A stretch of 64,000 bases of DNA, from positions 1,952,001 through 2,016,000 of the forward strand of contig CP084166.1 of assembly GCA_021513695.1 (NCBI GenBank), written 5' to 3'. Below the pieces are notes generated by a model. The model saw nothing but the letters and a program-made list of their open reading frames with translations, had not been told where the DNA came from and did not search any database. Each line of letters begins with the position of its first letter. Positions within the stretch are counted from its first letter, which is position 1. The position numbers and the translations under genes were made by a program. The stretch is from Candidatus Heimdallarchaeum aukensis (GTDB taxonomy: Archaea > Asgardarchaeota > Heimdallarchaeia > Heimdallarchaeales > Heimdallarchaeaceae). This document shows, piece by piece, positions 2,852 to 55,773 of this stretch.

Positions 2852-3439
2852 ATGATCTCGGAAAATTGGAAAACAAAAAAAACTCTGAAAATTGCAATAT
2901 TGGGTGAAGGTTCTGTAGGAAAGACAACAATATCAAAAAAATATTCTGAAGACTTATCTGAAACAGAAAAAATTACAATGACAAAAGGAGTCGACATTGC
3001 GGTAAAGAATCTTATTCATAAATCTACGCCCATTGCTTTACAAATTTGGGATTTTGCGGGTCAAAAGCAGTTTCGATTTATGATTGATATTTTCCTAAGA
3101 GGAGTAAAAGGAATCGTATATGTCTATGACGTAAACGATATAGAAACATTATACCTGCTTTATGAATTTGTAGAAATTGTGCGAAATTATTTTAAAGAAA
3201 ATAATATCTCCCAGGTCCCAGAAGTACTTGTAGGAAACAAAATTGATATTGGTGATGCAGAAGTTTCAATTGAAGATATATACAGCTTTATGAATACTCA
3301 CAACATTGAAAAGCATTTTCTCGTTAGCGGAATGTATGGAGATAATGTTTATCCATTATTTGATTATTTAATAGAAAAAATAGTCTTTGATGAGTCTAAG
3401 GAGCATATCTCTACAATAAATCAATATTCACTTAAATAA
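2852..3439 (+). CDS. Ras-superfamily small GTPase
   Basis: G1 GEGSVGKTT, G3 WDFAGQ and G4 VGNKID are all present. Confidence 0.75.
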   Translation: MISENWKTKKTLKIAILGEGSVGKTTISKKYSEDLSETEKITMTKGVDIAVKNLIHKSTPIALQIWDFAGQKQFRFMIDIFLRGVKGIVYVYDVNDIETLYLLYEFVEIVRNYFKENNISQVPEVLVGNKIDIGDAEVSIEDIYSFMNTHNIEKHFLVSGMYGDNVYPLFDYLIEKIVFDESKEHISTINQYSLK

Positions 3440-5626: not shown

Positions 5627-6433
5627 ATGAGCTTTGACAAAACAATTTTATTAACCAATGATGATGGAATTGCTTCATTAGGTCTACAAAGTTTAAGGAG
5701 AGAATTAGCAGAATTAGGGAATGTTATCTGTATTGCCCCAAGGTCCCCAAGTTCTGCAATATCAAAAGCTCTTACTTTCCATAAACCAATAAGGTACAGA
5801 TCAGTAAAATTTGAAGGAGGACAAAAAGGTTATAGTACTTCAGGTTCTCCTGCTGATAATGTACTAGTTGGCTTTCATTTACTAAATAGAAAACCAGATA
5901 TTGTAGTTTCAGGTATAAATTATGGAGATAATAGTTCAATTCACTCCGTTTTAACATCTGGTACCTGTGCTGCTGCATTTGAAGCAGCCTTAAATGGTGT
6001 TCCCGCAATTGCTTTTTCATCAGATGTTGCAGATGATGCACAATTAATAGAACAAGATGGAGTAAACTTTGAACCAATGGCAAAGATTGCAAAAAATATA
6101 ACAAAAGTAGTATTAGAAACAGAGTGGCCAAAAAATTTAGCTTTTTTGAATGTTAATTTTCCTGTAGAAATTACAGACGAAACAGAGATGTTTATAACTT
6201 TTCCAAATTTATACAAATATGATAACTACATGATCGCAAAAAAAGATCCGAGAGGACTACCTTATCTTTGGCTGTGGGGAGAAAGAAAAAAATCCTTTCC
6301 AGAAGGTTCAGACACATGGGCAGTTATTGAAAAAAAGGCCATCAGTATTACTCCTATCGGATTTAATCTTCATGCAAAAACAGAAGAAACATCAAAATTT
6401 TTAGAATATATTCAAAACAAAGTTAAGGGTTAA
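5627..6433 (+). CDS. surE: 5'/3'-nucleotidase SurE
   Basis: N-terminal ILLTNDDGI, plus SGINYGDN and SGTCAAAFEAALNGVPAIAFS. The ORF track starts at 5606; the second Met at 5627 fits SurE N-termini better. Confidence 0.8.
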   Translation: MSFDKTILLTNDDGIASLGLQSLRRELAELGNVICIAPRSPSSAISKALTFHKPIRYRSVKFEGGQKGYSTSGSPADNVLVGFHLLNRKPDIVVSGINYGDNSSIHSVLTSGTCAAAFEAALNGVPAIAFSSDVADDAQLIEQDGVNFEPMAKIAKNITKVVLETEWPKNLAFLNVNFPVEITDETEMFITFPNLYKYDNYMIAKKDPRGLPYLWLWGERKKSFPEGSDTWAVIEKKAISITPIGFNLHAKTEETSKFLEYIQNKVKG

Positions 6434-11381: not shown

Positions 11382-11816
11382 ATGACGAAAAGATTACCGT
11401 GGATACTTCCGGGCATAAGAAGACCTAAATTTAATCTTCATCAAGTAACATTTCGAATACCCACTGAAATTCCACAAAGTGTTTGGTATTTTATAGTATA
11501 TGGAATAATATTTTACATTTTCAGTGGTGGAGCTTATGATATCGTCAATAAAGATTATATTGCTCCATTGGGAAGTGGATCGCAAGGACAACCTCTTTTT
11601 GTTTATCCTGCCACACAAGCACAATTTCTTATTGAAGGAATAGTAGCTGGTTTTATCATTGCCTTTGCAGCTTTAAGTTTATACTTATTTGATTATGCAA
11701 CAAGATTTACCTTTGATGTGAACACGGCACAAAAAATTGAAGTAATAGCTTCAATATTTGTTTTAATCTGGTATGTTGTTATAGTGCTTTTATACAAGAA
11801 AAAAACAGGAGGATAA
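11382..11816 (+). CDS. hypothetical membrane protein (about 3 TM)
   Basis: Three hydrophobic helices. No family recognised. Confidence 0.45.
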   Translation: MTKRLPWILPGIRRPKFNLHQVTFRIPTEIPQSVWYFIVYGIIFYIFSGGAYDIVNKDYIAPLGSGSQGQPLFVYPATQAQFLIEGIVAGFIIAFAALSLYLFDYATRFTFDVNTAQKIEVIASIFVLIWYVVIVLLYKKKTGG

Positions 11817-14678: not shown

Positions 14679-15737
14679 TTATTTTAAGAGTTTTAAAAGG
14701 ATTTTTTTTCTATTTTCAGTTTCTTCAGAAAAATATTCTGGAAATTTTTCTTTTATTTCGTTTTTCCATTCTTTTTTAGAGATAGAATTAGAAAATTTGA
14801 ATGGAAACAACTCATTAGCTATTTTAAACAGGCGTGCTTGCTCAATATAGCTAAAGAAATCTTTTTTGTTTGTTTTTGTCAAAGAAATGCCTATCTGGTG
14901 GTGGTTACCTTTTTTTCTTATTTTTGCTTTAATCCCAACTTCTGATAAGAGTTTTATCAGATACTTTTGTTCTTCAAACGTAAAGTTATTTGTACATAAG
15001 GATAAATCAGTACCTGAAAAATAACCGTCGTCAATATACCAAAATAATAAAACAGTTGGTGTTAGAGTAAGATCTTTTTTCAAAACCTTTTTTGTTTTAC
15101 CTAATTTATTTGAATACCAATTTTCCCAATAACTAAAAAATTCTACAGAGGAAGAAGTATCAAAGCCACAAGACCATTTTATTGATTCTGTATTACTCGG
15201 TTTAACAAATACCTTTAGTTTCGTAAAACTGCTAAATAGAGGAATAAGAGTTTTAATCCACTGAAACTCTAATATAGATTTATGGATTCTTAATGCAGCA
15301 GTATTTACTTTTGAGATTTTAGATACACATTTATTCCAATTAGAGATATCTGTGTTAGTTATAGCTTTTCCTTCATTTACTTTCTTTCTTAATTTTTCGG
15401 CTCTATCCAATAAACGGAGATATTCTGACAAAAGAGGTTGCTTCTTACTCGCTTGCAATTTTGTTTGCAATCGTAAATTTGCGTCTCCCAACATCATTCC
15501 TTCAATGATTTCTTGTATCTCTAAAGGGATAGGATGTGTAAATTCCTTGTTAATATGGTTTCTAGTTTTCGTCCAAAGTGAACCAGGAAAAGGTATTTTC
15601 AAACCCATTGAAGTTAAAAGAGGTTTTATAGTTCTTGGATCTTTATTCAATTCTTTTCCAATTACCTTTATTCCCTTTAATTCACCAACATACATTTTTA
15701 ACAGTTTTTTTTGTATTTCTGTTATTTCTAATGTCAT
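14679..15737 (-). CDS. free-standing LAGLIDADG-family homing-endonuclease-like protein
   Basis: Two LAGLIDADG-like motifs: GMMLGDANL at about aa 70 and LLFWYIDDGYFS at about aa 225. Not embedded in an intron or intein. Confidence 0.45.
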   Translation of the reverse strand: MTLEITEIQKKLLKMYVGELKGIKVIGKELNKDPRTIKPLLTSMGLKIPFPGSLWTKTRNHINKEFTHPIPLEIQEIIEGMMLGDANLRLQTKLQASKKQPLLSEYLRLLDRAEKLRKKVNEGKAITNTDISNWNKCVSKISKVNTAALRIHKSILEFQWIKTLIPLFSSFTKLKVFVKPSNTESIKWSCGFDTSSSVEFFSYWENWYSNKLGKTKKVLKKDLTLTPTVLLFWYIDDGYFSGTDLSLCTNNFTFEEQKYLIKLLSEVGIKAKIRKKGNHHQIGISLTKTNKKDFFSYIEQARLFKIANELFPFKFSNSISKKEWKNEIKEKFPEYFSEETENRKKILLKLLK

Positions 15738-17607: not shown

Positions 17608-18240
17608 ATGTTGGAAGAAATAGTTAAACAATGTCTGAAAAGAGGAAATTTAACACATATTGTAGGGCCACCAAAATCAGGAAAAAATACACTGTTATAT
17701 CATTTGGTATCAAAAGTGCGTAAAGGAGAGAAGGCAATAATTATTGATGCAGAAATAAGCGTGAGTGTTCAAAGACTTATAGAAATAACAAAATTCAAAG
17801 AAATCGAACTAGAAAGAATAATAATAATACAAACAAAAAATAGTTATGAGCAACACAAAACAGTGTTAAACCTGCATAATTTGATAGGTAGTAGAAAAAT
17901 AAAATTCATAGCAATAAATGGAATAACAAACCATTTCAGAAATAACGGAATAAAAATAGGAAAAGCAAATAAATACAATATTTTAGCCCTTCAAGTAGCA
18001 TATCTGAAAGAATTCGCAAAAAAAATGAAAATAGCAGTAATTGTAACAAATCAAATGAAAGGAGAAAGGGATAAATTCAGAGCTAGTATGGGGATAGTGG
18101 GTAAAAAAATCTTTGAAAAATATGTTGACACAACATTCGAAATTAATCAAGTAAATGAAAAATTATGGTCAATAAATAGCGATAAGAATTTTAGAAGTTT
18201 ATATTTAATCACAGAAGAAGGAATAAAGGTTTTAGATTAA
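17608..18240 (+). CDS. RadB/KaiC-like RecA-superfamily ATPase
   Basis: Walker A GPPKSGKNTL and a hhhhTNQ motif. About 210 aa, typical of RadB. Confidence 0.55.
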   Translation: MLEEIVKQCLKRGNLTHIVGPPKSGKNTLLYHLVSKVRKGEKAIIIDAEISVSVQRLIEITKFKEIELERIIIIQTKNSYEQHKTVLNLHNLIGSRKIKFIAINGITNHFRNNGIKIGKANKYNILALQVAYLKEFAKKMKIAVIVTNQMKGERDKFRASMGIVGKKIFEKYVDTTFEINQVNEKLWSINSDKNFRSLYLITEEGIKVLD

Positions 18241-18260
18241 AATAAGCAATTAAGAAAATC

Positions 18261-18367
18261 TGGAGCCCCGAGGGGGGATTTCAAGCTTTTGCTCACAACA
18301 AAGAGCTATTTGAACCCCCGACCTTTACCTTACCAAGGTAACGCTCTACCAGCTGAGCTATCGAGGC
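18261..18367 (-). tRNA. tRNA-Thr (anticodon GGU) with a ~30-nt insertion in the T-arm (putative non-canonical intron)
   Basis: Cloverleaf folded by hand: acceptor GCCTCGA/TCGGGGC, D-arm GCTC-AGCTGGTA-GAGC, anticodon arm TTACC-TTGGTAA-GGTAA, T-stem GGGGG/CCCCC, encoded CCA. An AGCTC...TTGAAAT block with an internal hairpin sits inside the T-loop. One extra C leaves the exact exon/intron junction ambiguous. Confidence 0.6.
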
Positions 18368-18525
18368 TCGTAGTTGTTTCCTTAAGATAATTTATCCTTA
18401 ACGGATTTTCATCTCGAATATTTTTTAAACCTTATGATTGAGAATATTCCAATTTCCTCAAAGGGCGAAAACTCTAAATATAGTTCTTTTTATTTGCACT
18501 CAAAACAAGTATAAAGGAGATTCTA

Positions 18526-19578
18526 ATGAAATTTAAGACTCTTGCTTTCTTAATTCTTATAATGTCACCTTTTATTATGACAACAAAAGGACAATTTATT
18601 TTAGCTGCACCTAACACAGAAAAAGAATATGTGATCTTATTTGATGAATCACATGGCCAATATTTTAACCGTACTTTGATGAAAAGTGCTTTAAGTGCCA
18701 TAAATGATAGTTTAAATGTAAGATTTATCTTTTTCAATGAGTCGAAATTTAATTCTACTAATCTTCAGGGTGTTGATTTAGTTATTATTGGAAATCCTGG
18801 AATATACAAGAATTACAATTTGTCTTCGGAAGAGGTTGAGGTTATTCAAGATTATGTTGAAGCAGGAGGTTCATTATTTCTACTTGCTAATCCACTTTCT
18901 TCTGATACAAATATTACAGGACATGTTTCTTCCTTCAACGACATACTTAGTGCAAGATTATCAAAACTATCCTCAGCCAGATTCAGAACAGGATTAGATA
19001 AAAGTTCAACAGTTATAATGGATGATTATCATAATAAATATAATAATGAATCTTTTCTTTCAATAGTCAATTACAATACCTCTGATAATGAGTTTCTTGA
19101 AAAAAATAAGATTTTTGAGCAAACAAGTAAAGTTGAGAATTTAACAGTTTATTCTACTGCAATATCTTTTGACAGACCAGAAAAAGAAAACGCTATAGGT
19201 CGAACAGAAATAACTAGTTACGCATTAGAGAAAGATGGTTCAATCGTTCAAGATATGATAAATGGTTTTCTTGTTTGGTTATTTGCTAAAGAAATAGGAA
19301 ATGCACGAATAGTTCTTTCTGGTTCAACTATTATGTTCAGTGACTTGATAATTTATGAAGATCAGAAGTTTATTGATGAAGAACAAAACAAAGAACTATG
19401 GTTAAACTTAATCAACTGGTTACTACATATAACTCCTTATGAAGAAAGAAATCCTATAGCCATGCCTTTCTACGCTTTAGTTTTGTTAGCTTTAGGTTTT
19501 GCCGCAGTGGTTTTCGTTATCGCTTTATTGTTGTATAGTTACAAAAAACAAAAGAAAATAAATATAAAAATTAAGTAG
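18526..19578 (+). CDS. secreted / surface-anchored protein with many N-glycosylation sequons
   Basis: N-terminal signal peptide, nine or more N-x-S/T sequons, and a C-terminal TM helix followed by a KKQKK tail. Confidence 0.5.
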   Translation: MKFKTLAFLILIMSPFIMTTKGQFILAAPNTEKEYVILFDESHGQYFNRTLMKSALSAINDSLNVRFIFFNESKFNSTNLQGVDLVIIGNPGIYKNYNLSSEEVEVIQDYVEAGGSLFLLANPLSSDTNITGHVSSFNDILSARLSKLSSARFRTGLDKSSTVIMDDYHNKYNNESFLSIVNYNTSDNEFLEKNKIFEQTSKVENLTVYSTAISFDRPEKENAIGRTEITSYALEKDGSIVQDMINGFLVWLFAKEIGNARIVLSGSTIMFSDLIIYEDQKFIDEEQNKELWLNLINWLLHITPYEERNPIAMPFYALVLLALGFAAVVFVIALLLYSYKKQKKINIKIK

Positions 19579-19604: not shown

Positions 19605-22600
19605 CTATTGTTCAAGAAGAAAATCTGATAAATTAACAGATTTCTTTTTCTCTGTTTTTCTAATTTTACGCTTTGATTTTTTATCAGCTGATCCATCATC
19701 AGGTAGGAACATTGTTAAAATGTTTTGTTTTAGTACGTCTATCCTAGATCGCAAATATTCTGAAACTGAATATTTCGAAACTAAATAATTGATAATATTA
19801 AGATATTTGGTTACTGATTTTTCAAAAACAGTAAGATTTAGCTTATTTGCACCACATTTTGTACAATATCCGCCCAAAGGAATACGACGATAGGTAGTAT
19901 TACAATTTGTGCAACGTATTTTTTGGCTACCAAATCTACGCATATTACCTATAAGATCTGGCAGAAATTGTTTGAAAATTACTCTTGTTGCTACATCGTC
20001 AACATCAACTGCTCTAATCTTACTAGCTAGTTCTAATTGTGCATCCACTTTTTCTTTCATTGTAGCTAAACGAGTATAAAGAGAAGATTTTTCGCCTACG
20101 AAAATTGAGGAAGTCTCATGACTATAGGAAAAACCTTCATAGGCAGCTTTTGTGTTTAACCTATGACTTACAATGTCAATTAAAGGGAGAACCTTCTTTG
20201 CGGGTAATGATTTCAGTGTAGATTCATAAAAAGACAAAGGATAAGAGTTACCTGTATCAACGTTATGAGACTCATCATCAACCTCAAAGGGATCTATTGT
20301 AGAAACCAAAATTAGCGGGGCATCCATTTGACCGCCTCTAACTTCTGGTAAAAAGAATTTTGAAAAATTAAGAAAAGCATCAAGAGCTAGAAGAATACTA
20401 TCCTCATCTCCATCGCAGTTCATCGTAATGCAACTAGTTGTCTGGAAATTATGTAACATTGTGTCATTTCTTATTGTTTCAACTTCCAAACAATATGAAG
20501 CCTCTTCTTTTGCAATATTATTTATTTCAGCTATTTGGTCACATATAGTATTATGTGCTTCTTTAAGTTCATAATAGTGATTGTTGTATTTTATCCGTCT
20601 ATTTTCAGGAAAACCTTTTTTAATAAATTGTTTCAGTTTTTCTTTTTTATTTTGATTAATTAGATCTAGATGTTGCATTATCCAAAGGTCTGCTCCTCTA
20701 ATAGATATTTTGTGAACAACTGTCTTTTTAGGCTCTTTTCCCAATTCTTTATATTTTTCCAATATTTTTTTGCCAAAATGTCCTTCTGGAGAAGATACTC
20801 TAGATCTTACGAATACACCAATGGTTGAAAAGAGATAAGTTATATCCTTTAATAATTCATTTGAAACAGAATAGAATGATATTTCCCCTACATCTTTTGA
20901 GAGCGTTCCATCTCCATCTAGATAGGCGGAAATAAAAGCTAATTTATATTTAGTTGGTACTGTATAGAGAAAGTTTGGCAAACGTTTTCTATAAGCTCCT
21001 TTCCCCATATTCCATGCATATGCGAAAAGATAGGCTAATATTCTTCCAGAACAAATAACGTTTCTTTCTTCGCTGATATAAGGAGTAAGACCTAGAGTTC
21101 GTTTTATTATTTCCACCAAATATTTTCTCATTTTTTCGTCTGGGATAGAAAAATTAATCTGATAACAGTTCTTATTATCCCGAATATGTCCTTCAGAAAT
21201 GTAATAACCTAGAATTCTCATTAACTCATCATTAAAAGGAAAATAGGGAGAAATAGTAAAATCATCTCTAGCCATCCCCAATCTTGCATCTGAAGGGATC
21301 TCATTCCAGTCAAAAATTCCTTCTTTTTGCAAAAGTTCTAAGTGGGATAAGGGGATAGAATCAAACCAGTGATTAGAAAAGAAGTATGTAGAATGAGGTA
21401 TATCGATTCCTTTTGAAAGAATATAATTTAGAAGTATCTTAGTACATGAAGAAGAGTTAATATTGCTGCTTTTTTCTTGAGAAAGTTTATTGCAGAAATC
21501 GTTTAACTTACTTTTTATCCAATTTCGGGCTTTTCTAAGTCTTACTGTGTGTTTAAATTCAGTAAACTTCTTGCTGTCAGGTAAGTTTTTTGCCAATTCC
21601 TCTAAAACATTTACTACTTTGTTATGTTGAAACCCTAACTCTGGAATCTTTGTTTTAATTGCAATATATTCGCCTATTTGTAAATTTCTTGCTTTCACAT
21701 TTTCGAAATCATTTGTCAGTTCATTCAACACGAGCATATTGTGGTCAGGTGTTACTGTTATTTCATTTCCACTTTTGGTTTTTATTTGCAACCATCTTTC
21801 ACTTTTTCCCTTAATCCAATGCTTGATGGGTTGTAAAATAGAAGAAGAGTTTTTTTGATCTAGACTAATGACCTTCCATTCTTTATGAAGATTCTCAATT
21901 GCAAATGTCCCAAAATCATCTACCAGCTTACTCTTAGCTCCTGATTTTATCTCTTCTTCTACTAGTTCTCCAATACTTTTTACAATGACCTGTTTCTTAT
22001 TTTCGTCCCAAATAAGTAGTTGTTCAGTTGGAAATAAACAATTTCTTCTTTTTGCTGCATGCCAATAAGGATGAGCTAATATTACTTTAGCATCAGTAAA
22101 TCCTATTAACCTTCCAGCAATACCTGCTGAAGTATGAGGAGCTAAACCTATAATTAAATGACCAACTAGGTCATTAATTGTTTTTGCTTTGTAAAAGGGA
22201 GGAAGTCCATACAATCTTTCTAACAACTCATCGATAAAATGAGAGACTTTTAGGAGATATTTACCTCCTTCCTCATTAACAATCACATCTTGAATTTTTA
22301 ATTCTAGTAGCTGATCTTCATTTTCTAGTAAATTCCCATGAATATCGTGTGTATAACCTATAGAATGGAGTTTTGAAATTGAAACACCAATTTCTTTTGG
22401 CTTAAAATGCGTAATTACAGCATCAGTAGCATCAAAACGTATTGTTCCATCACGGTATACAAATACATCGTTTAAAGAACGTAATATCCCTTTTACTATA
22501 AATTCTGGTATACGATGTTTATTCATCAGTTTTTTAACAGCTTTTACATTTTTAGGTAAATCAGAGTTAAATTCTCTTGCAATTTTTCTAAATTCTTCGT

Positions 22601-24776
22601 TAATAGGAAAGGGTTTAGTTTTGTAACTAATTAGAGGTATCCCACACCTTTTACATTTATCGTCATTAGATTCTAACCCACATCTTGGACAAAATTTAAT
22701 GATTTCTGTTACTACATTACAACGTGAACATATGGATAAATGCGTAGTAGAACCACATACATGACATTTTCTTTGTACTAATTCGATCTCTATAACTTTT
22801 TTTTCACTCGCGGAAACAATATTTCTTTGATTACCTCCTGCTTCACCAATTGGAAAAAGTAGATGCACTGGAGGTTTCATCTTTCTACTTTTAGCTTTTT
22901 CTGGACGCCCCATTCTTGCACCAGTATAACAAGGACACTTATCTCTCACTTTAATATATTTGTAGGAGTTAATTATTTCTAAAACAGTTTTTGCTTTATT
23001 TTCCACCGGAAGTAAACTTCCATTTTTAAAACCTAAAGATATTAGTAGAGTTTGCGAATGTTCCCCAAATAAAATTTTTCCATCCCTTATAGAGTGAGGA
23101 ATGCATATTTCTTCCAAAATTGTTTTTATCTCTTTATCATAAGGTAACTCTAAATTTTCATCTTTATTATAGTATGATGATATATATTCACGTAACCGAA
23201 TATATGCAGAAATTGAAATATCATTCCAATGATATGTATATTCAGGATGAAGTGGAATATCAAGTAAAAGCGATAGTCCTATAGCTTCTTCAGCGGTTGG
23301 GATAATGTTCAAGGGGTCTTTTATGAACTTATCAAACTTTTGTTTTTTATTTTTAAAAAACTGATTTATCTCTACTTCAGAAAAATTCATTAACTGCTTC
23401 TCAAGTTCTTTTGCCCACCATTCTTCACAATATCCAGAAGGTACAAGATCATGGTTAAACTGGTTAAATTCACCTACACCATAAAGCATATCTCCAAGAA
23501 AAAGAATCTTTTCTATTTGATCTTTTAATTGAATACCTTCTTCATAGGAATTAACTTTACAAACATTACCGTTTTTTAGAAGCACAATAGGTGGATGTAT
23601 AGAATCCACAGGCATGACAATGGCTCCTTTTCCGGGTCTTTCTGTTCGCAAATGTGTTCCACAAACCAAAAAATCATTTGTGATTGCAAAAAGTGCTGGA
23701 TGTACACCCATTGCAGCTAATCCAGTAATTCTAGAACGCCCATATCTAATCCTAAAACCACCTTTCGCGGATGGATGACTAAAAACTGGCCTTCCACCAA
23801 TTACGTCTTGAATATAACCTGTATCAGGCTTAATAAACAAATTATCTTGCTCAATTTCATGTTTACTTGTACCTTTTTCTTCATCAGTTTCTCCAGAATT
23901 CTCAATATTCTGGCTTGAGTGTATTTGTATTAAATCGGAAAACCAGTCCCAACCCTTTAATTTATGTTTTGATACTCTTTTTTCAAGTTTTTTTACTCTA
24001 CCCACAATACCGTCATTAAAAACTAAACAAGCACCTCCTCTAAGTCTATTAGTTTCAATACGTTTCAAATCTCTATTTCCAGAAACTTCAACTTTCTCAG
24101 TAGGTTCTCCTGTGATTTCAATGGGAAGATTTCTTGCCGCAAATCGCTGCTCCTCTTTAGTTGTGGGAAGTTGTAAATGCATTACTTTGTTGTAAAGATC
24201 TATTTCCTCTACCGTTCGCTCTATTTCTCTCTCTGTAGGTTTATACCTATCAAGTTTTAATGTTCGTCGTATGTGATCAGCCAACAAAACACTCATACCC
24301 GCTGCCGTACCACCAGCAGAGCGTATAGGTCCAGCATAGTAAACAGCTAAGTAGTCGGATCCGTCATCATTTTGCTTAATTTTTACTTTCGCTATACCTT
24401 CAAGAGGAGCTGCAGTGATGCTTTCAGTTATTATTGCCAATGATGTACGGAGTGCTTGCTCGGCGAGCTCAATTTTTTCAGAAGAAAAAAATTTACCTTC
24501 AGCTATTTCTTCTGCAATTTTAAATGCCACGCTTTCGCGAGAGAGACCTTGTCTTTCAAGTTCTCTAATTCTCTTCCCAACCCCTTTAGGTCCAATTAAT
24601 CCTTCAACTCGATCAGCAATATCTTTAGCGATAGGTATTTCAACTTCAGAAGAAGGATCATAACCTTTTTTTCTCGCCTGTTTAGCAATCCTATAAGTTT
24701 GTTCTATCAATGAATTAATTTCCTCAAAATATCCCCTAACATTTACTGAAATTAACTCGTCATCTGATATTTCCAT
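19605..24776 (-). CDS. DNA polymerase II (PolD) large subunit DP2, intein-containing
   Basis: DP2 N-terminus, Zn-ribbon clusters, and the RRN/CDGDED catalytic motif split by a 541-aa insertion. Confidence 0.95.
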   Translation of the reverse strand: MEISDDELISVNVRGYFEEINSLIEQTYRIAKQARKKGYDPSSEVEIPIAKDIADRVEGLIGPKGVGKRIRELERQGLSRESVAFKIAEEIAEGKFFSSEKIELAEQALRTSLAIITESITAAPLEGIAKVKIKQNDDGSDYLAVYYAGPIRSAGGTAAGMSVLLADHIRRTLKLDRYKPTEREIERTVEEIDLYNKVMHLQLPTTKEEQRFAARNLPIEITGEPTEKVEVSGNRDLKRIETNRLRGGACLVFNDGIVGRVKKLEKRVSKHKLKGWDWFSDLIQIHSSQNIENSGETDEEKGTSKHEIEQDNLFIKPDTGYIQDVIGGRPVFSHPSAKGGFRIRYGRSRITGLAAMGVHPALFAITNDFLVCGTHLRTERPGKGAIVMPVDSIHPPIVLLKNGNVCKVNSYEEGIQLKDQIEKILFLGDMLYGVGEFNQFNHDLVPSGYCEEWWAKELEKQLMNFSEVEINQFFKNKKQKFDKFIKDPLNIIPTAEEAIGLSLLLDIPLHPEYTYHWNDISISAYIRLREYISSYYNKDENLELPYDKEIKTILEEICIPHSIRDGKILFGEHSQTLLISLGFKNGSLLPVENKAKTVLEIINSYKYIKVRDKCPCYTGARMGRPEKAKSRKMKPPVHLLFPIGEAGGNQRNIVSASEKKVIEIELVQRKCHVCGSTTHLSICSRCNVVTEIIKFCPRCGLESNDDKCKRCGIPLISYKTKPFPINEEFRKIAREFNSDLPKNVKAVKKLMNKHRIPEFIVKGILRSLNDVFVYRDGTIRFDATDAVITHFKPKEIGVSISKLHSIGYTHDIHGNLLENEDQLLELKIQDVIVNEEGGKYLLKVSHFIDELLERLYGLPPFYKAKTINDLVGHLIIGLAPHTSAGIAGRLIGFTDAKVILAHPYWHAAKRRNCLFPTEQLLIWDENKKQVIVKSIGELVEEEIKSGAKSKLVDDFGTFAIENLHKEWKVISLDQKNSSSILQPIKHWIKGKSERWLQIKTKSGNEITVTPDHNMLVLNELTNDFENVKARNLQIGEYIAIKTKIPELGFQHNKVVNVLEELAKNLPDSKKFTEFKHTVRLRKARNWIKSKLNDFCNKLSQEKSSNINSSSCTKILLNYILSKGIDIPHSTYFFSNHWFDSIPLSHLELLQKEGIFDWNEIPSDARLGMARDDFTISPYFPFNDELMRILGYYISEGHIRDNKNCYQINFSIPDEKMRKYLVEIIKRTLGLTPYISEERNVICSGRILAYLFAYAWNMGKGAYRKRLPNFLYTVPTKYKLAFISAYLDGDGTLSKDVGEISFYSVSNELLKDITYLFSTIGVFVRSRVSSPEGHFGKKILEKYKELGKEPKKTVVHKISIRGADLWIMQHLDLINQNKKEKLKQFIKKGFPENRRIKYNNHYYELKEAHNTICDQIAEINNIAKEEASYCLEVETIRNDTMLHNFQTTSCITMNCDGDEDSILLALDAFLNFSKFFLPEVRGGQMDAPLILVSTIDPFEVDDESHNVDTGNSYPLSFYESTLKSLPAKKVLPLIDIVSHRLNTKAAYEGFSYSHETSSIFVGEKSSLYTRLATMKEKVDAQLELASKIRAVDVDDVATRVIFKQFLPDLIGNMRRFGSQKIRCTNCNTTYRRIPLGGYCTKCGANKLNLTVFEKSVTKYLNIINYLVSKYSVSEYLRSRIDVLKQNILTMFLPDDGSADKKSKRKIRKTEKKKSVNLSDFLLEQ
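20418..22040 (-). mobile_element. intein with LAGLIDADG homing-endonuclease domain, inserted in DP2 between RRN and CDGDED
   Basis: The insertion starts with Cys (CLFPTE...) and ends ...SCITMN before extein +1 Cys. The internal LAGLIDADG motifs are ILGYYISEGH and FISAYLDGDG. I checked the codons at both junctions against the DNA. Confidence 0.8.
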
Positions 24777-36541: not shown

Positions 36542-38536
36542 TTGATGAGTGATTACGCAGCTACTATAGTTAACCACATGAAAAATAAAGAATTAATACG
36601 AAACATATGTATCGTAAGTCATGTAGATCATGGTAAAACTACTCTTTCTGATTATCTTCTTCAAGCTGGAGGATTAATATCCCAATCTCTCGCTGGTTCT
36701 GCACGCGTTTTAGACTATCTTGAAGAAGAACAACAACGTGGGATTACTATAAAAACAGCTAATATTTCTTTCATTTATAAGCACAAAGAAACAGATTATT
36801 TAATCAATCTTGTTGATACACCTGGTCATGTCGATTTTTCAGGATTAGTTGCTCAAGCAATAAGACTAGTTGATGGAGTAATTATTGTTGTTGATGCTGT
36901 AGAAGGGGTAATGGCACAAACACATTCCGTAATTAAACAATCAATAGAAGAGGGATTGAAGCCAATTCTCTTTATAAATAAAGTTGATAGATTGATAAAT
37001 GAACTTAAGCTTGACGAAAAAACTATTGAAAGTAAATTAAATACGATCATACAGTTTGTTAATGAATTGATTTTACAATATTCTTACAACAATAATATTC
37101 AAAGAAAAGTTAGTTTTTCTGATGGGACTGTTATAATAGGTTCTGCACTATATGGTTGGGCTCTGTCAAAGTACTCTGAACAAATACCAAAGTTTTCTAC
37201 AATCATTAGTTTGCATAAAGAAAATAATGTGAAAAAATTAAAAAAAGAAAATTCACTAATTAGTGCTTTAATGCCTGCAATAGTAAATTCTATTCCTTCT
37301 CCCCTTATTGCGCAAAAAGCTCGAATTACGAACATTATTGAATCTATATCAAATCAAGATAGGACCTCAATTGAAAAGTGTGACAATAATGGAAATACAA
37401 TCATTTGTATAGGTAAATTACTCTATGATAAAAATAGAGGAATAATAGCAATTGGAAGATTATTTTCTGGCGTTTTGAGAAAAGGTTCGATTCTAATAAA
37501 TACTAGAAACAAGAAAGAAGTTCGAATACACCAAGTTTGTTTGTATAAAGGTCCTTCACTTATTACTGTGAAGGAAGTTGAAGCAGGAAATATAGCTACA
37601 CTTATCGGAATGAAAGAAATACAAGTTGGCGATGTGTTGGTTGAAGATTTAAATATCGAGCAAATGATTGAGTTTAAACAAATATCTTATTTACAAGAAC
37701 CAGTAATTACAATACGAATTGAACCAAAGAATATTAGTGATATTCCGAAATTGCAAGAAGAGCTTGAAATTCTTTCTTTAATCAAGCCCAACTTTTCATA
37801 TATTATAGACGAAAATACAGGAGAAATTAAAGTTTATGGGATTGGTGAACTACAATTAGAAATAATTCTTAAAGATATTATGAAGACAGGTTTGCAAATA
37901 GAACTTTCAAATCCAGAAGTAGCATTAGTAGAACAAATAGATAAGGAAATTGAACATAAGTCAATTGATTCGTTAGGTAAAGTAGAATTAAGTATAAAGT
38001 GTTCTCCTACAACTAAAGCAAAAATATCTGGCGATACTGTTGTATTTAAAGACAAAAAAAATAATTTTTTGGTTGTTGAAGATACATCAATAAAAAACGA
38101 ACATATTGATCTATTAATTATTGGTTTTAAAAATGCTATAAAATTAGGGGTTAAATCTTCTAATCCTATTAGAAATTTGACTGTTATAATCAAAAAAATA
38201 GATATGCTTGAACAAGATGCTTTTCGATATGAAATTATTGTTCCTGCAGTTAAGAAAATAATCCATGAGGCCATATCCAATTCTATTTTTATTTATGAAC
38301 CAATTTACACAATCACTATAACGACTCCACTTGACTATCTTGGTGCTGTGCTCTCTGTTTTTCAGAAATATGGTGGAGAAGTGGAGAAAACAGAGCAAAT
38401 CTCTTCGAAAATGATTATTTATGGGGTTATAACTGTGCGATCCTCTCTTTCATTGGCAAATGAATTAAGGAAAGCTTCTGAAGGCTTTGCATTTTGGCAA
38501 CTTGATGTGTCTGGTTATAGAAAAATAAAAGAATAG
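36542..38536 (+). CDS. EF-2/EF-G family GTPase (short, divergent aEF-2 or EF-2 paralog)
   Basis: N-terminal IRNICIVSHVDHGKTTLSD...RGITI...DTPGHVDF and NKVDR. At 664 aa it is shorter than canonical aEF-2. Confidence 0.8.
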   Translation: MMSDYAATIVNHMKNKELIRNICIVSHVDHGKTTLSDYLLQAGGLISQSLAGSARVLDYLEEEQQRGITIKTANISFIYKHKETDYLINLVDTPGHVDFSGLVAQAIRLVDGVIIVVDAVEGVMAQTHSVIKQSIEEGLKPILFINKVDRLINELKLDEKTIESKLNTIIQFVNELILQYSYNNNIQRKVSFSDGTVIIGSALYGWALSKYSEQIPKFSTIISLHKENNVKKLKKENSLISALMPAIVNSIPSPLIAQKARITNIIESISNQDRTSIEKCDNNGNTIICIGKLLYDKNRGIIAIGRLFSGVLRKGSILINTRNKKEVRIHQVCLYKGPSLITVKEVEAGNIATLIGMKEIQVGDVLVEDLNIEQMIEFKQISYLQEPVITIRIEPKNISDIPKLQEELEILSLIKPNFSYIIDENTGEIKVYGIGELQLEIILKDIMKTGLQIELSNPEVALVEQIDKEIEHKSIDSLGKVELSIKCSPTTKAKISGDTVVFKDKKNNFLVVEDTSIKNEHIDLLIIGFKNAIKLGVKSSNPIRNLTVIIKKIDMLEQDAFRYEIIVPAVKKIIHEAISNSIFIYEPIYTITITTPLDYLGAVLSVFQKYGGEVEKTEQISSKMIIYGVITVRSSLSLANELRKASEGFAFWQLDVSGYRKIKE

Positions 38537-38622
38537 TGGCTCAGCACTCAAGATCCTCATCACTAATCAGTCAAGGGCTAGACACATCATAGCCACATTA
38601 AATAGTTTATGAGAGTATTTTT

Positions 38623-50889: not shown

Positions 50890-50917
50890 ATAGGCGAAAA
50901 CTGATATCTAAAGTAAT

Positions 50918-53900
50918 CGAACTATGCCTACGCCATGCTGTGGATGACTTGGCTGGGGAACCGATGAAGGTCGTGGTAAGCCGCGAAAGGCCTCGGGGAG
51001 ACGCAAACAGTCTACGATCCGAGGGTCACCGAATGGGGATCCCGACACAGCCTAATAAGTTGTGTCAACCAGTAATGGTGGGGAACGTGGGGAACCGAAA
51101 CATCCAAGTACCCACAGGAAAAGAAAACAATTGTGATTCCGTGAGTAACGGCGAGTGAAAGCGGAACAGGTCAAACCGAATTCCCTTTTCGAAAGATTAG
51201 GGTAGATGTGGTGTTTGTGACTGCAATATGGACCGTCAGCGTGAAGTCGAAGACAATGTGGAACATTGCGCCATAGAGGGTAAAAGCCCCGTAGACGTAA
51301 GCGCTCGGCCTAGCAGGATCAAGACTAGCGTGGCTTGGATTTGTCGCGCAAATATGGGAAAACTATGTCCCAAACCTAAATATTCCCCCAGACCGATAGC
51401 GCACTAGTAGCGTGAGCAAAAGTTGAAAAGTATCCAAAATATGGGAGTGAAAAGACCCTGAAACAGCATGGTAACAGACGTGGATGGCTCGAAAGCGTAG
51501 ATTCTCAGCGAAGGAACTCACCGTGAGGTGTTAGTACGAGCTGAGAGGAGCGGGGTCATCCGTTCCGTCTAGAAACACGGGCCGAGGAGTTCAGATTCGT
51601 GGCGAGCCTAAACGTATGTGGTGGCGTAGCGAAAGCGACCTGCACGCAGCACTTATGTGCCAGGTGCGACGTACGATAAGTGCGTGAAGTCACGGGTCTG
51701 AGACACGAAAGGAGTCGATCTACCCCTGGTTAAGGTGAAGCGCTTCGAAAGGAGCGTGGAGGCCTGAAGGGTTTCTAATATGCAATTTGTTCCTCTGAAC
51801 TGGGGGTAGTGGCAAAAGACCAATCTAGACTCCTGATAGCTTGTTCCCGCCGAAGTATAACCACAGTATAGCGTCACCGGAGGTTGCATGTGAGGTAGAG
51901 CTACGGACGGGTTGTCCCGGGGAGTGAAATCCTCGCCAATCCTTCCAACTCCGAACTTGCATGCGCCGTAGATGGTGGCAGACGGGCGTGTATCCGCAAG
52001 GGATATGGCCGCGAGGGGTTCAACCCAGAGGTTGGTTAAGGGCCCTAAATCCTGGTTAAATGTTAAACTGAATGACGTCCAACGGCTTAGACAATGAGGC
52101 GGTAAGCTTAGAAGCAGCTATCCGTTAAAAAAAGCGTAACAGCTTACTCATCGAGCTGTTGGGCTCAGAAAATGGACGGGGCTAAACCAGGTCCCGATAC
52201 CAATCCGAACTTCAAAAGAGTTTTGGGTAGGCGGGCGATCAGGTTGGGCTGAAGCTGGGGGGTGACTCCCAGTGGACCGGCTTGATTTGCAGATCTCGGC
52301 GGTAGTAGGAGCATAGTGAGGTGAGAATCCTCATCGCCGAAAGCCCAAGGGTTCCTTGGCACTGTTCGTCAGCCAAGGGTTAGTCGGTCCTAAGGGTGAT
52401 CTTAACACGAATCACTCGAAAGGGAAACAGGTTCATATTCCTGTACCGCGCATATAGGTGTGGTGACACAAGCTTTGAGCAGACACTGGTGGGTAGGTGG
52501 CCTAGGAGCGTATCCTAGTTAAATCCCGAATTCTGGGGAGAACCGTTATGGTGAGAACCAGAAGAATGGATGAATAGGCTGGCCATCGGTTGCTGGCTGC
52601 CATCAATCCCAACAGTCCATGAAAATGCGAGAAGAACGATTATGCGCGACCGTACCCAGAACCGTGACAGGTGTGGCTAGCTGAGAAGGCTAAGGCGTGT
52701 TAGGAGAAATCAGGTGAAGGAAATCGGCAAATTAGCCCCGTATCTTGGGTATAAGGGGTGCCTGGAAAGGTGTATGCCTTCCCAGGTCGCAGTGACAAGG
52801 GGCACCCGACTGTTTAATAAAAACATAGCAAACTGCAAGGGTGAAAACCTGTGTACAGTTTGTGAATCCTGGCCGGTGCTGGTGATTGAAACCTGGGTAC
52901 AACCAGGCTAAGACCCAGTAAACGCCGGAGCTAACTATGAGCTTCTTAAGGTAGGCAAATGCCTTGTCTGCTAATTACAGACGTCCATGAAGGGACCAAC
53001 GAGGTGCCCACTGTCTCCACCTGAATCCTACTGAACCCACAGTCCAGCGAACAGTCTGGAATGCACCATCGGGAAGAGAAGACCCTGTAGAGCTTTACTG
53101 CTGTCAGAGGCTGTTGTACTGGTGCTCATACATAGAATAGTCAGGAGGCGTCGATCCTACATTCTCCGGGATGTAGGGGAGCCGACAGTGAAATACTGAC
53201 TTTGAGCATTGGTACGACTCACCTCTTGCGAGGGGGACACCCTCTGCCTGGCAGTTTCACTGGGGCGGTAGCCTCTTGAAAAGATATCAAGAGGGCCCAA
53301 AGCCAAGCTCAACCGGGACAGAAATCCGGTGTAGAGTGCAAGGGCAAAAGCTTGGTTGACTGTGAACTGATAGAGAAGGTTCGCAGATGTTAACGCAGGG
53401 CCTAGCGATCCTTCGCATTGCCCATAGTAGGCGGCGGAGGTGGCGGAAAAGTTACCTCAGGGGTAACTACACTTTGATGTTACACTATCAAAGTGGCTAG
53501 ACAAAAAGGAACTTTTCCTGCATTGCACTTTATCTTTTCAAGGGCACGAAAAAATGAAACAAAAAAATAAAGCTAAGGTGGGTCAAATTTTACCCGAATG
53601 AATAATATACCGCAAAAAAAAGTTATCGAGTGAGGATTACTTACAAGTTTTCGCCTAATGGTCAAAAGGAAAACTTGAGCGGATTAGAACGGATCCAACA
53701 TCTGCCTTAACCATCAAGAAAAAAGACCCTTGGAAAAGATGAAGAGCCATTTTGAAAGTGTGAGGTCAAGAGGTTATTAGATCGGTAACTTGCCTTAAGC
53801 CGAGGCTGACAACTAATCTAATAACCGAAGTCGAAAAGACTGGTGTAGCCCTGAACAGAGTTGTCGTGGGTAAGAGTTCACATCGACCTCACGGCTTGCT

Positions 53901-54340
53901 ACCTCGATGTCGGCTCTTCCTAGCTTGGAGGTGATTCAGCTTCCAAGAGTGGGGTTGTTCGCCCATTAAAAGGGAACGTGAGCTGGGTTTAGACCGTTGT
54001 GAGACAGGTTGGATTCTATCTGATGGTGCTGGCGGGAGATTGAGAGTAAAACCTCCACAGTACGAGAGGAACAGGCGGTTGGGGCCTCTGGTGTATCGGT
54101 TGTCCTCCCGGGCATTGCCGAGTAGCTAAGCCCTTGAAGATAAGAGCGGAAAGCATCTATGCTCGAAGCTTCTCTCGAAACGAGTCTCCCATTCTGTACC
54201 TTTTGGGGGCTGGTGACAGCAACCTTTGGTATAGACGAGAGCACGGAAAGAAGATCCGGTTGATAGAGCAGGGGTGTGCGCGTCGAGCTTCGGCGAGATG
54301 TTTAGCCCACTGCTACTAATCGCTCAAGCGTAGTTCGACC
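50918..54340 (+). rRNA. 23S (large-subunit) rRNA, interrupted by a ~389-nt insertion
   Basis: Conserved 23S blocks recognised by eye: 5' GGATGACTTGGCTGGGGAACCGATGAAGG, GACTGTTTAATAAAAACATAGC, GGGGTAAC...AGAGTTCACATCGAC...CTCGATGTCGGCTCTTCC. The 5' and 3' ends pair (GAACTATGC / GCGTAGTTC). GC is about 50%, against about 30% for the genome. Confidence 0.9.
53468..53856 (+). other. putative 23S rRNA intron (non-coding, AT-rich)
   Basis: The conserved domain V sequence GGGGTAAC|AGAGTTGTCGTGGGTAAGAGTTCACATCGAC is split by about 389 nt of AT-rich sequence. The boundaries are ambiguous by 2-3 nt. Confidence 0.6.
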
Positions 54341-54591: not shown

Positions 54592-55773
54592 ATGAGTGAT
54601 AATAGTAATCTTAATCCTATTCACCTTAACAATGATGTTTCTCAGGGCGATTCTTCTTCTCTTAGTTGTCCTGTAAGTCCTGATGTCGGTACTTCTGATG
54701 AAGAATTATTGTCTCTTCTTCAGACTAGTTCTTCTCGTACTTCTAAATATGATACTAATAACGCTAATGCTGAGATTATTGAATATGTTCGAGATGATCG
54801 TATTTTAGCTATTGGTGTTGGTGGAGCTGGTAGTAACGCCATTAATAATATCATTGAGCGTGGTGGTATTGGTGGGGCTACTACAATTGCTATTAATACT
54901 GATGCTCGTCATCTTTTAAATACAAAGGCTGAGAAAAAGCTCCTTATTGGCAAGGAATTAACTCGCGGTACTGGTGCAGGTAATGATCCTAATATTGGTC
55001 ATGCTGCTGCGGTTGAGAACGAGGAAGAGATACGTGAACTTGTTCGTGGAACTGATTTAGTTTTTATTGCTTGTGGACTTGGAAAAGGTACAGGTACTGG
55101 TGCTGCTCCCTATATTGCGAAGATAGCTCAAGAAGAAGGTTGTTTGGTTATTAGTGTTTGTACTCTTCCTTTTGCTTCTGAAGGAGAAAGTAAGATGCGT
55201 ACTGCTTTACGTGGTTTACAAGAGTTGAACCGCCACTCTAATACTATTATTATTGTTCCTAATGAGAAGTTAGTATTGGAAGCTGCTGATTTTTCAGTAT
55301 TAGACGCTTTTGAGATGGCTGATGAAGTTTTGATTAATGCTGTTGTTGGTTTAACCGATGTTATCGTTGAAACTGCTAAGATTAATGTTGATCTTGCTGA
55401 CACTAAGAAAATTTTGCGTAATAGTGGCCCTGCTGTTATTAGTATCGGTAAAGGAAAAGGAGAGAATCGTGCTCTTGACGCAGTTAACGCAGTATTAACC
55501 AATAGTATGTTAGAGGCTGATATTTCTAAGTCTACTGGTGCTCTTGTTAATATAAAAGCTAATAAGAAGATTACCACAATGGAGCTTGAAGCTATTACCA
55601 ATGAAATAACTTCTCGTATCGCCCCTGATGCTTTATTCATTTGGGGTCTGAGTATTGATGATACTATGGCTGATGATGAATTGTTTGTTACTGTTGTCAT
55701 CGCTGAAGTTGATTCTCCTTATCTTGAACTTGATGAAGACGAAACCACTATTGAGGACTTATGGTATAACTAG
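54592..55773 (+). CDS. ftsZ: cell division GTPase FtsZ
   Basis: IGVGGAGSNAIN and GTGTGAAP (the tubulin signature), plus a low-complexity N-terminal extension. Confidence 0.9.
   Translation: MSDNSNLNPIHLNNDVSQGDSSSLSCPVSPDVGTSDEELLSLLQTSSSRTSKYDTNNANAEIIEYVRDDRILAIGVGGAGSNAINNIIERGGIGGATTIAINTDARHLLNTKAEKKLLIGKELTRGTGAGNDPNIGHAAAVENEEEIRELVRGTDLVFIACGLGKGTGTGAAPYIAKIAQEEGCLVISVCTLPFASEGESKMRTALRGLQELNRHSNTIIIVPNEKLVLEAADFSVLDAFEMADEVLINAVVGLTDVIVETAKINVDLADTKKILRNSGPAVISIGKGKGENRALDAVNAVLTNSMLEADISKSTGALVNIKANKKITTMELEAITNEITSRIAPDALFIWGLSIDDTMADDELFVTVVIAEVDSPYLELDEDETTIEDLWYN

Follow-up and report, generated by a model that had tools for sequence, protein, structure and literature searches.

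The stretch of DNA analyzed here, hereafter the window, comprises 64,000 nt of the Candidatus Heimdallarchaeum aukensis genome, with a G+C content of approximately 30%; Rfam models identify an archaeal large subunit (LSU) rRNA and a C/D-box sRNA within it. The locus under study is a 107-nt pre-tRNA-Thr(GGU) gene on the minus strand at 18261..18367, the coordinates at which an earlier note on this DNA had correctly placed it and for which we add the strand. It is surrounded by ordinary housekeeping genes, namely pyruvate phosphate dikinase, NAD synthase, an OST48-like membrane protein, and the large subunit of DNA polymerase D. A RecA/Rad51-family protein (17608..18240), 100% identical to K9W45_08820 of H. 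aukensis, terminates 21 nt away from the tRNA gene; a synteny search from this protein brought up that H. aukensis cluster alone and yielded no comparators. Across the 64 kb, a single tRNA gene is detectable, even at E <= 1.

Several genes of the window are of separate interest. The DNA polymerase D large subunit (DP2; 19605-24776, minus strand, 1723 aa) carries a LAGLIDADG homing-endonuclease intein at approximately residues 933-1437, and a free-standing LAGLIDADG_2 endonuclease ORF (14679-15737, minus strand, 352 aa, E = 1.6e-21) sits between the pyruvate phosphate dikinase and NAD synthase genes, outside any intron or intein. Co-option of a homing-endonuclease homolog by a mobile element has been described in the genus Heimdallarchaeum (Wu et al. 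2022, PMC8813620). Three plus-strand genes, at 2852-3439, 11382-11816, and 18526-19578, encode eukaryote-like proteins of the signature set typical of Asgard genomes: a small GTPase of the Ras/Arf family, a protein resembling OST3/OST6, and, adjoining the tRNA gene, a membrane protein that matches OST48_N and IFT52-GIFT weakly. Finally, the C/D-box sRNA (38538-38594, minus strand; Rfam snoPyro_CD, 46.7 bits, barely over the gathering score) lies immediately downstream of an elongation factor 2-like gene (36545-38536).

The pre-tRNA gene extends from G1 of the acceptor stem at 18367 to the final A of an encoded CCA at 18261. Its 5' exon (18309..18367, tRNA positions 1-59; assigned from sequence, ARAGORN, and fold) opens with the acceptor strand GCCTCGA (18367..18361) and continues through the D arm, the anticodon arm with anticodon GGT (18332..18334; ARAGORN and sequence), a 5-nt variable region AGGTC (sequence, ARAGORN, and Rfam), the 5' strand of the T stem (GGGGG, 18319..18315), and the first part of the T-loop (TTCAAA, 18314..18309). 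A tRNA with the GGU anticodon is needed for the threonine codons ACC and ACU. Up to the T-loop, the gene is a normal tRNA-Thr(GGU); the 3' strands, discriminator, and CCA are then displaced by 31 extra nt. The 17-nt 3' exon (18261..18277; assigned from sequence and ARAGORN on the spliced product) starts with C60 and includes the 3' strands of the T stem (CCCCC, 18276..18272) and acceptor stem (TCGGGGC, 18271..18265), discriminator U73 (18264), and CCA (18263..18261). Read along the minus strand, the 5' half is GCCTCGA TA GCTC AGCTGGTA GAGC G TTACC TTGGTAA GGTAA AGGTC GGGGG TTCAAA, and the remainder is the intron TAGCTCTTTGTTGTGAGCAAAAGCTTGAAAT followed by C CCCCC TCGGGGC T CCA.

Candidate transcription signals flank the gene on the same strand. 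A probable archaeal TATA box, ATAAATTA, was read from the sequence at 18388..18395, which is 21-28 nt upstream of tRNA position 1, a distance that fits archaeal promoters; the same site in Candidatus H. endolithica is ATAATTTA. Directly past the CCA, a T-rich trailer TTTTCTT (18252..18258) is a probable archaeal transcription stop.

Standard tRNA finders recover this gene only in part. With default settings, ARAGORN reports an intron-less tRNA-Thr(GGU) of 74 nt (18367..18294) in which the acceptor is mispaired and the T stem weakly joins GGGGG to CTCTT. Its intron options (-i and -i0,60) return the same faulty 74-nt call on the 107-mer because the anticodon loop is the sole place that they search. 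The Rfam tRNA model matches 18361..18300 (model positions 7-64, 35.4 bits) and misses the 3' acceptor strand. Deletion of 18308..18278 in silico yields a 76-mer that ARAGORN folds as a flawless Thr(GGU) cloverleaf, with seven of seven acceptor pairs (one of them G-U), a 4-bp D stem, a 5-bp anticodon stem, a variable region of 5 nt, a T stem of five G-C pairs out of five, the T-loop TTCAAAC, discriminator U, and CCA. No covariance-model fold of the full 107 nt as an intron-less tRNA with a long variable arm was obtained, and a tRNA is indeed called by both ARAGORN and Rfam, if partially; these were the two outcomes that the earlier note had named as counting against its reading. Rfam searches for a second tRNA, a hidden second half, or a C/D-box or other family in the intron found none (E <= 10 at the locus, E <= 1 in the window).

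The unspliced RNA also folds as expected of a precursor. Its unconstrained minimum free energy (MFE) structure contains the acceptor, D, anticodon, and T stems together with a UUCA/UGAA helix, an AAU bulge, and an intron hairpin. Fold z-scores are -2.2 for the 107-nt RNA and -3.0 for the T-arm region.

[quoted passage not shown] The 5' strand of a BHB runs from the outer helix through a 4-nt helix strand and a 3-nt bulge into the inner helix; the 3' strand runs from the inner helix through a 4-nt helix strand and a 3-nt bulge into the outer helix; and cleavage follows the second nucleotide of both bulges. The 3-4-3 arrangement defines the strict form of the motif (PMC3239211). At this locus (all features on the minus strand), the outer helix h is the T stem itself, a 5-bp G-C helix of GGGGG (18319-18315) and CCCCC (18276-18272). 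The central helix pairs TTCA, T-loop positions 54-57 (18311..18314; complementarity and MFE fold), with TGAA in the 3' part of the intron (18280..18283; MFE fold). On opposite strands of this UUCA/UGAA 4-bp helix lie bulge A (AAU, 18308..18310; three unpaired nucleotides in the MFE fold) and bulge B (AUC, 18277..18279; canonical register). The inner helix h' joins AGCT (18304..18307) to AGCT (18284..18287) and, past a bulged C, TTTG (18302..18299) to CAAA (18291..18288) in the MFE fold, so that both flanking helices have the two or more base pairs of the strict hBHBh' geometry.

Cutting past the second bulge nucleotide places the predicted 5' splice site between 18309 and 18308 (AA and T of bulge A) and the predicted 3' splice site between 18278 and 18277 (AT and C of bulge B). 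In silico, the resulting T-loop is U54 U55 C56 A57 A58 A59 C60. By the strict 3-4-3 motif of the modeled fold, then, the intron is the 31 nt at 18278..18308, between tRNA positions 59 and 60; there are bulges at both of its ends and its removal restores the cloverleaf. The earlier note had recognized a tRNA-Thr(GGU) with a BHB intron at a non-canonical T-arm position, and this stands, with the spliced cloverleaf perfect and the motif strict. Its placement of approximately 30 nt in the T-loop was right as to location and wrong as to size: the 30-nt segment AGCTC...GAAAT leaves a surplus C, and the intron is 31 nt and shifted. That surplus C, on account of which the note had left the junctions open, is C18277, which becomes T-loop position 60 and is thereby absorbed. 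A supposed flanking duplication, TTCAAAT/TTGAAAT, likewise resolves into parts of the motif: TTCA and TGAA are reverse complements that form the central helix, and AAT and AT(C) are the bulges.

A run of six C residues allows two registers for the 3' bulge. The MFE register (-39.3 kcal/mol) pairs the first five C and leaves a 2-nt bulge and one unpaired C at the stem junction. The canonical register, stable at -35.0 kcal/mol, pairs the last five C, has a 3-nt bulge, and stacks the T stem on the acceptor. In these models, energy alone does not settle which register would be adopted in solution.

Other classes of insert were considered and rejected. A relaxed BHB (HBh', hBH, or BHL) was ruled out by the presence of both bulges and both flanking helices in 3-4-3 form, and a class II tRNA with a long variable arm by the 5-nt variable region AGGUC and the position of the extra 31 nt inside the T-loop. 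Likewise, a group I or group II self-splicing intron is ruled out by the length of only 31 nt and by Rfam, which gives the tRNA alone (E <= 10, 18150..18480). The intron is also too short for a C/D-box guide RNA and has neither C nor D box. Within the window, no other copy of the intron was found with up to three mismatches allowed, and there is therefore no sign of local intron transposition.

Conservation was assessed in the sister species and in metagenomes. A tight pattern for a tRNA with an insert at the 59/60 site had a single match in the genome collection, Ca. H. endolithica PR6 (L001), whose locus is 95.1% identical to the window across 8 kb. Across the 543 nt at 17900..18442, the two species differ by 12 substitutions; the 107-nt pre-tRNA has none of these, and six fall within the 95 nt of intergenic DNA that directly flank it. 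H. endolithica and metagenome contig L032 both carry the intron unchanged. Intron identity between two Heimdallarchaeum species is on its own weak evidence, with approximately two substitutions expected in 31 nt. Because H. endolithica is too close for covariation, metagenomes were scanned with a looser pattern (Thr-GGU anticodon loop, GGGTTCRAA, a gap of 15-45, and YGAANNNCCC).

The metagenome scan returned 59 loci, 34 of which regain a T stem of five pairs out of five when the 59/60 insert is removed. The inserts of these classified matches range from 21 to 48 nt. Approximately 25 of the 59 were ordinary tRNA-Thr genes of bacteria or archaea, intron-less and matched downstream by chance; these were discarded, and L040 was removed from the 34 as a false match. 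Merging genes with no difference across the 36 compared columns left 17 distinct BHB regions; besides this gene, 16 distinct genes for tRNA-Thr(GGU), from other archaea of Asgard-like and Bathyarchaeia-like type, have an intron at the identical site. Judging by neighboring proteins, example contigs derive from Asgard archaea (L014) and from Bathyarchaeia-like soil archaea (L013).

The scan pattern prescribed the central helix and a portion of the T stem and left the inner helix unconstrained. The inner helix nevertheless covaries strongly: in its first four base pairs, 91.2% of cells are paired, compared with 46.8% in column shuffles, none of which attained the observed value in 500 trials, and 29-46% when the register was slid. 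Two-sided changes occur in all four pairs, with AGCU/AGCU, GCC/GGC, GCGAGU/ACUCGC, and UAUC/GAUA among the variants. Position 60 is C or U in 17 of 17 genes under the canonical cut; the alternative cut gives mostly purines.

Many of these homologs are interrupted twice, with a second intron located in either the D arm or the anticodon stem. The second introns are approximately 17-30 nt long and are seen, for example, in L014 (~5880-6030, plus strand), L057 (~5950-6110, minus strand), and the soil contigs L002, L007, and L013. In the soil Bathyarchaeia-like group, the second intron is found in the D arm after GCTCAGCCTGGTAGA; in L057, it seems to lie in the anticodon stem, at approximately 28/29.

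Taken on its sequence, the gene has every hallmark of a strict BHB intron, and we hold with high confidence that the region is the precursor of H. aukensis tRNA-Thr(GGU) with one 31-nt intron of archaeal type in the T-loop at 59/60. Three other explanations nevertheless deserve consideration. The simplest takes the ARAGORN call at face value: the gene would be an intron-less 74-nt tRNA (18367..18294) whose apparent downstream 3' half is coincidental. That ARAGORN reports this structure, and that 18361..18300 scores above the gathering threshold of the Rfam tRNA model, speaks for it. Its acceptor, however, contains mismatches and G-U pairs, its T stem (GGGGG/CTCTT) barely pairs, and a free fold of the 74 nt gives no cloverleaf, whereas a perfect T-stem strand, acceptor strand, discriminator, and CCA lie 31 nt downstream, right past the BHB motif. 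A chance origin of the split architecture is not plausible because the 3' half, with its 12 stem pairs, sits exactly 31 nt downstream and because unrelated metagenome contigs of other archaea show the same architecture, with covariation. We regard this explanation as extremely improbable.

Alternatively, the 31 nt could be an insertion that stays in, such as a mobile-element scar or the remnant of an integrase att site, in a decaying or disrupted pseudogene. Heimdallarchaeum genomes do harbor many elements that integrate into tRNA genes (PMC8813620). Unlike a random scar, though, the insert and T-loop form a textbook 3-4-3 BHB, and no att-like duplication of the tRNA 3' half was found; the only direct repeat in 18150..18480 is a weak one of 14 nt at 79%. 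The insert has no coding capacity. Also at odds with decay are the intact stems of both exons, the plausible TATA box and encoded CCA, the requirement in textbook decoding for a GGU tRNA to read ACC and ACU, and the absence of substitutions between the two species in 107 nt against six in the 95 nt of flanking intergenic DNA. A pseudogene is in our estimate highly unlikely, if slightly less so than the other two explanations. The last of these is that the mature RNA keeps the 31 nt in an enlarged T-arm, making it an unusual tRNA or a tRNA-like RNA with another role. Nothing specific favors this. It would lock U54 U55 C56 in the UUCA/UGAA helix, and such sequestration would preclude the D-loop/T-loop interaction that a functional tRNA has. 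Moreover, the motif is the exact substrate of the archaeal splicing endonuclease, and the introns of homologs vary freely in length (21-48 nt) and sequence with the BHB geometry kept. We accord retention next to no probability.

Returning to the spliced-precursor reading, we infer the course of the reaction and its enzymes as follows. In the transcript, the T stem would act as the outer helix, UUCA would pair with the UGAA that lies toward the intron's 3' end, and the intron hairpin would supply the inner helix. The archaeal splicing endonuclease EndA would cut between 18309 and 18308 and between 18278 and 18277, and an RtcB-type ligase would join the exons. The predicted product is a 76-nt tRNA with T-loop UUCAAAC and the junction ...UUCAAA/CCCCCC..., that is, GGGGGUUCAAA joined to CCCCCCUCGGGGCU; the intron would be released, probably as a small circle. 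A Pfam scan found no EndA or RtcB domains among 40 ORFs of the window, so the enzymes would be encoded elsewhere in the genome, and by analogy with other Asgard genomes in the literature H. aukensis presumably has both. Endonucleases of the alpha4 and alpha2 types need the strict 3-4-3 motif, and the (alpha-beta)2 type accepts relaxed motifs too (Fujishima 2011, PMC3239211). Asgard archaea are reported to combine non-canonical introns with a broad-specificity (alpha-beta)2 EndA that has an L1 loop (Kaneta 2018, PMC5829648). The earlier suggestion that this intron needs an endonuclease of relaxed specificity nonetheless falls away, as a strict hBHBh' motif makes no such demand by its structure.

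The recurrence of the intron at one site of one isoacceptor invites an evolutionary reading. The 59/60 intron of tRNA-Thr(GGU) could be a single ancient element, vertically inherited since before the split of Asgard from TACK (Bathyarchaeia) and maybe retained against tRNA-targeting mobile elements; interruption of the T-arm may destroy the attachment sites of such elements or their integrases. Alternatively, the site could be a hot spot for recurrent, recent insertion. We consider the single ancient origin a rather doubtful proposition.

A second interrupted RNA gene occurs in the same window, and we find it more intriguing than the tRNA intron. The LSU rRNA gene (50916-54339, plus strand) carries an AT-rich insert of approximately 389 nt at 53465-53853 (plus strand), in the peptidyl-transferase core. 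In segment-wise cmscan searches, 50916-53200 maps 1:1 onto model positions 1-2281, and the 1139 nt of 53201-54339 map onto only 706 model positions. The insert breaks the universally conserved peptidyl-transferase loop string GGGAUAACAG, i.e., CAGGG(A/G)UAACAG, with junctions that read ...CCTCAGGGGT and AAC at the 5' end and CCCTG and AACAGAGTTG at the 3' end. It lies near E. coli 23S position 2449, a classic rRNA intron site. No ORF of at least 90 aa is present in the insert, nor any Rfam match, group I and II introns included (E <= 10). The insert ends pair in the MFE fold, and by eye the junctions resemble a relaxed BHB (CTACAC/GTGTAG, AGGG/CCCT, bulges of 4 and 3-5 nt). An expansion segment is excluded because a working ribosome could not tolerate one there, and, read from the sequence, the insert is probably an archaeal-type rRNA intron.

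Subtraction of the insert leaves a surplus of approximately 44 nt in the 3' quarter of the 23S gene (53201-54339, plus strand). They possibly represent the enlarged ES39 of Heimdallarchaeota, a feature described previously (Penev et al. 2020, PMC7594248). No 5S or SSU rRNA was found near the LSU gene in the window, and FtsZ follows at 54592-55773. A 5S rRNA reportedly could not be predicted in Heimdallarchaeum genomes either (Wu et al. 2022, PMC8813620).

The main value of the tRNA result is for annotation. ARAGORN ends the gene 33 nt short at a false 3' end and hides the intron, and Rfam sees positions 7-64 only; existing Heimdallarchaeum annotations may therefore contain a wrong tRNA-Thr(GGU) or none. 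Pipelines built on either tool will annotate this tRNA incorrectly. Beyond this, the gene adds one well-resolved strict 59/60 BHB intron in an Asgard lineage, and several further uncultured archaeal lineages have an intron at this site of this isoacceptor. This offers a modest contribution to the question of old versus repeatedly gained introns and leaves knowledge of the mechanism unchanged. We found no published description of this gene or of Heimdallarchaeum tRNA introns.

Compared with the canonical archaeal intron at 37/38, the intron described here shares the BHB recognition element, the cleavage rule, and the presumed ligation chemistry and differs in lying in the T-loop instead of the anticodon loop. 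The T-loop site causes standard tRNA finders (ARAGORN, the Rfam model) to shorten or misfold the gene. The eukaryotic enzyme, which measures distance from the mature domain, is not expected to handle a 59/60 site.

Among Asgard archaea, Atabeyarchaeia and Freyarchaeia are reported to have introns, often non-canonical, in 92-95% of tRNA genes (Valentin-Alvarado et al. 2024, PMC11291895). Our gene resembles the Asgard tRNA introns in its superphylum and in having an intron outside 37/38 that is predicted from a BHB motif (PMC5829648 Fig. 7, PMC11291895). Those papers, however, give genome-wide counts for other Asgard genomes, and genes of Atabeyarchaeia and Freyarchaeia often have several introns, in contrast to the single one here.

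Finally, the closest counterparts are the known archaeal introns at 59/60, a position included among the non-canonical sites listed for Thermoproteales, Crenarchaeota, and Nanoarchaeota (Yoshihisa 2014, PMC4090602). In ARMAN-2, a 59/60 intron was shown biochemically for pre-tRNA-Cys, and pre-tRNA-Pro(GGG) has a strict motif at the same site (PMC3239211). The H. aukensis intron is like these in its T-loop site, its 3-4-3 BHB with the T stem as the outer helix, its short length, its lack of an ORF, and the presumed cleavage by EndA followed by RtcB ligation. It differs in its Asgard host, Heimdallarchaeum, and in its tRNA, Thr(GGU); its motif is also strict, whereas many 59/60 introns of Crenarchaeota and ARMAN are relaxed. 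Overall, both the 59/60 position and non-canonical introns in Asgard archaea are already published, and the intron of H. aukensis tRNA-Thr(GGU) is of an ordinary, well-known type.
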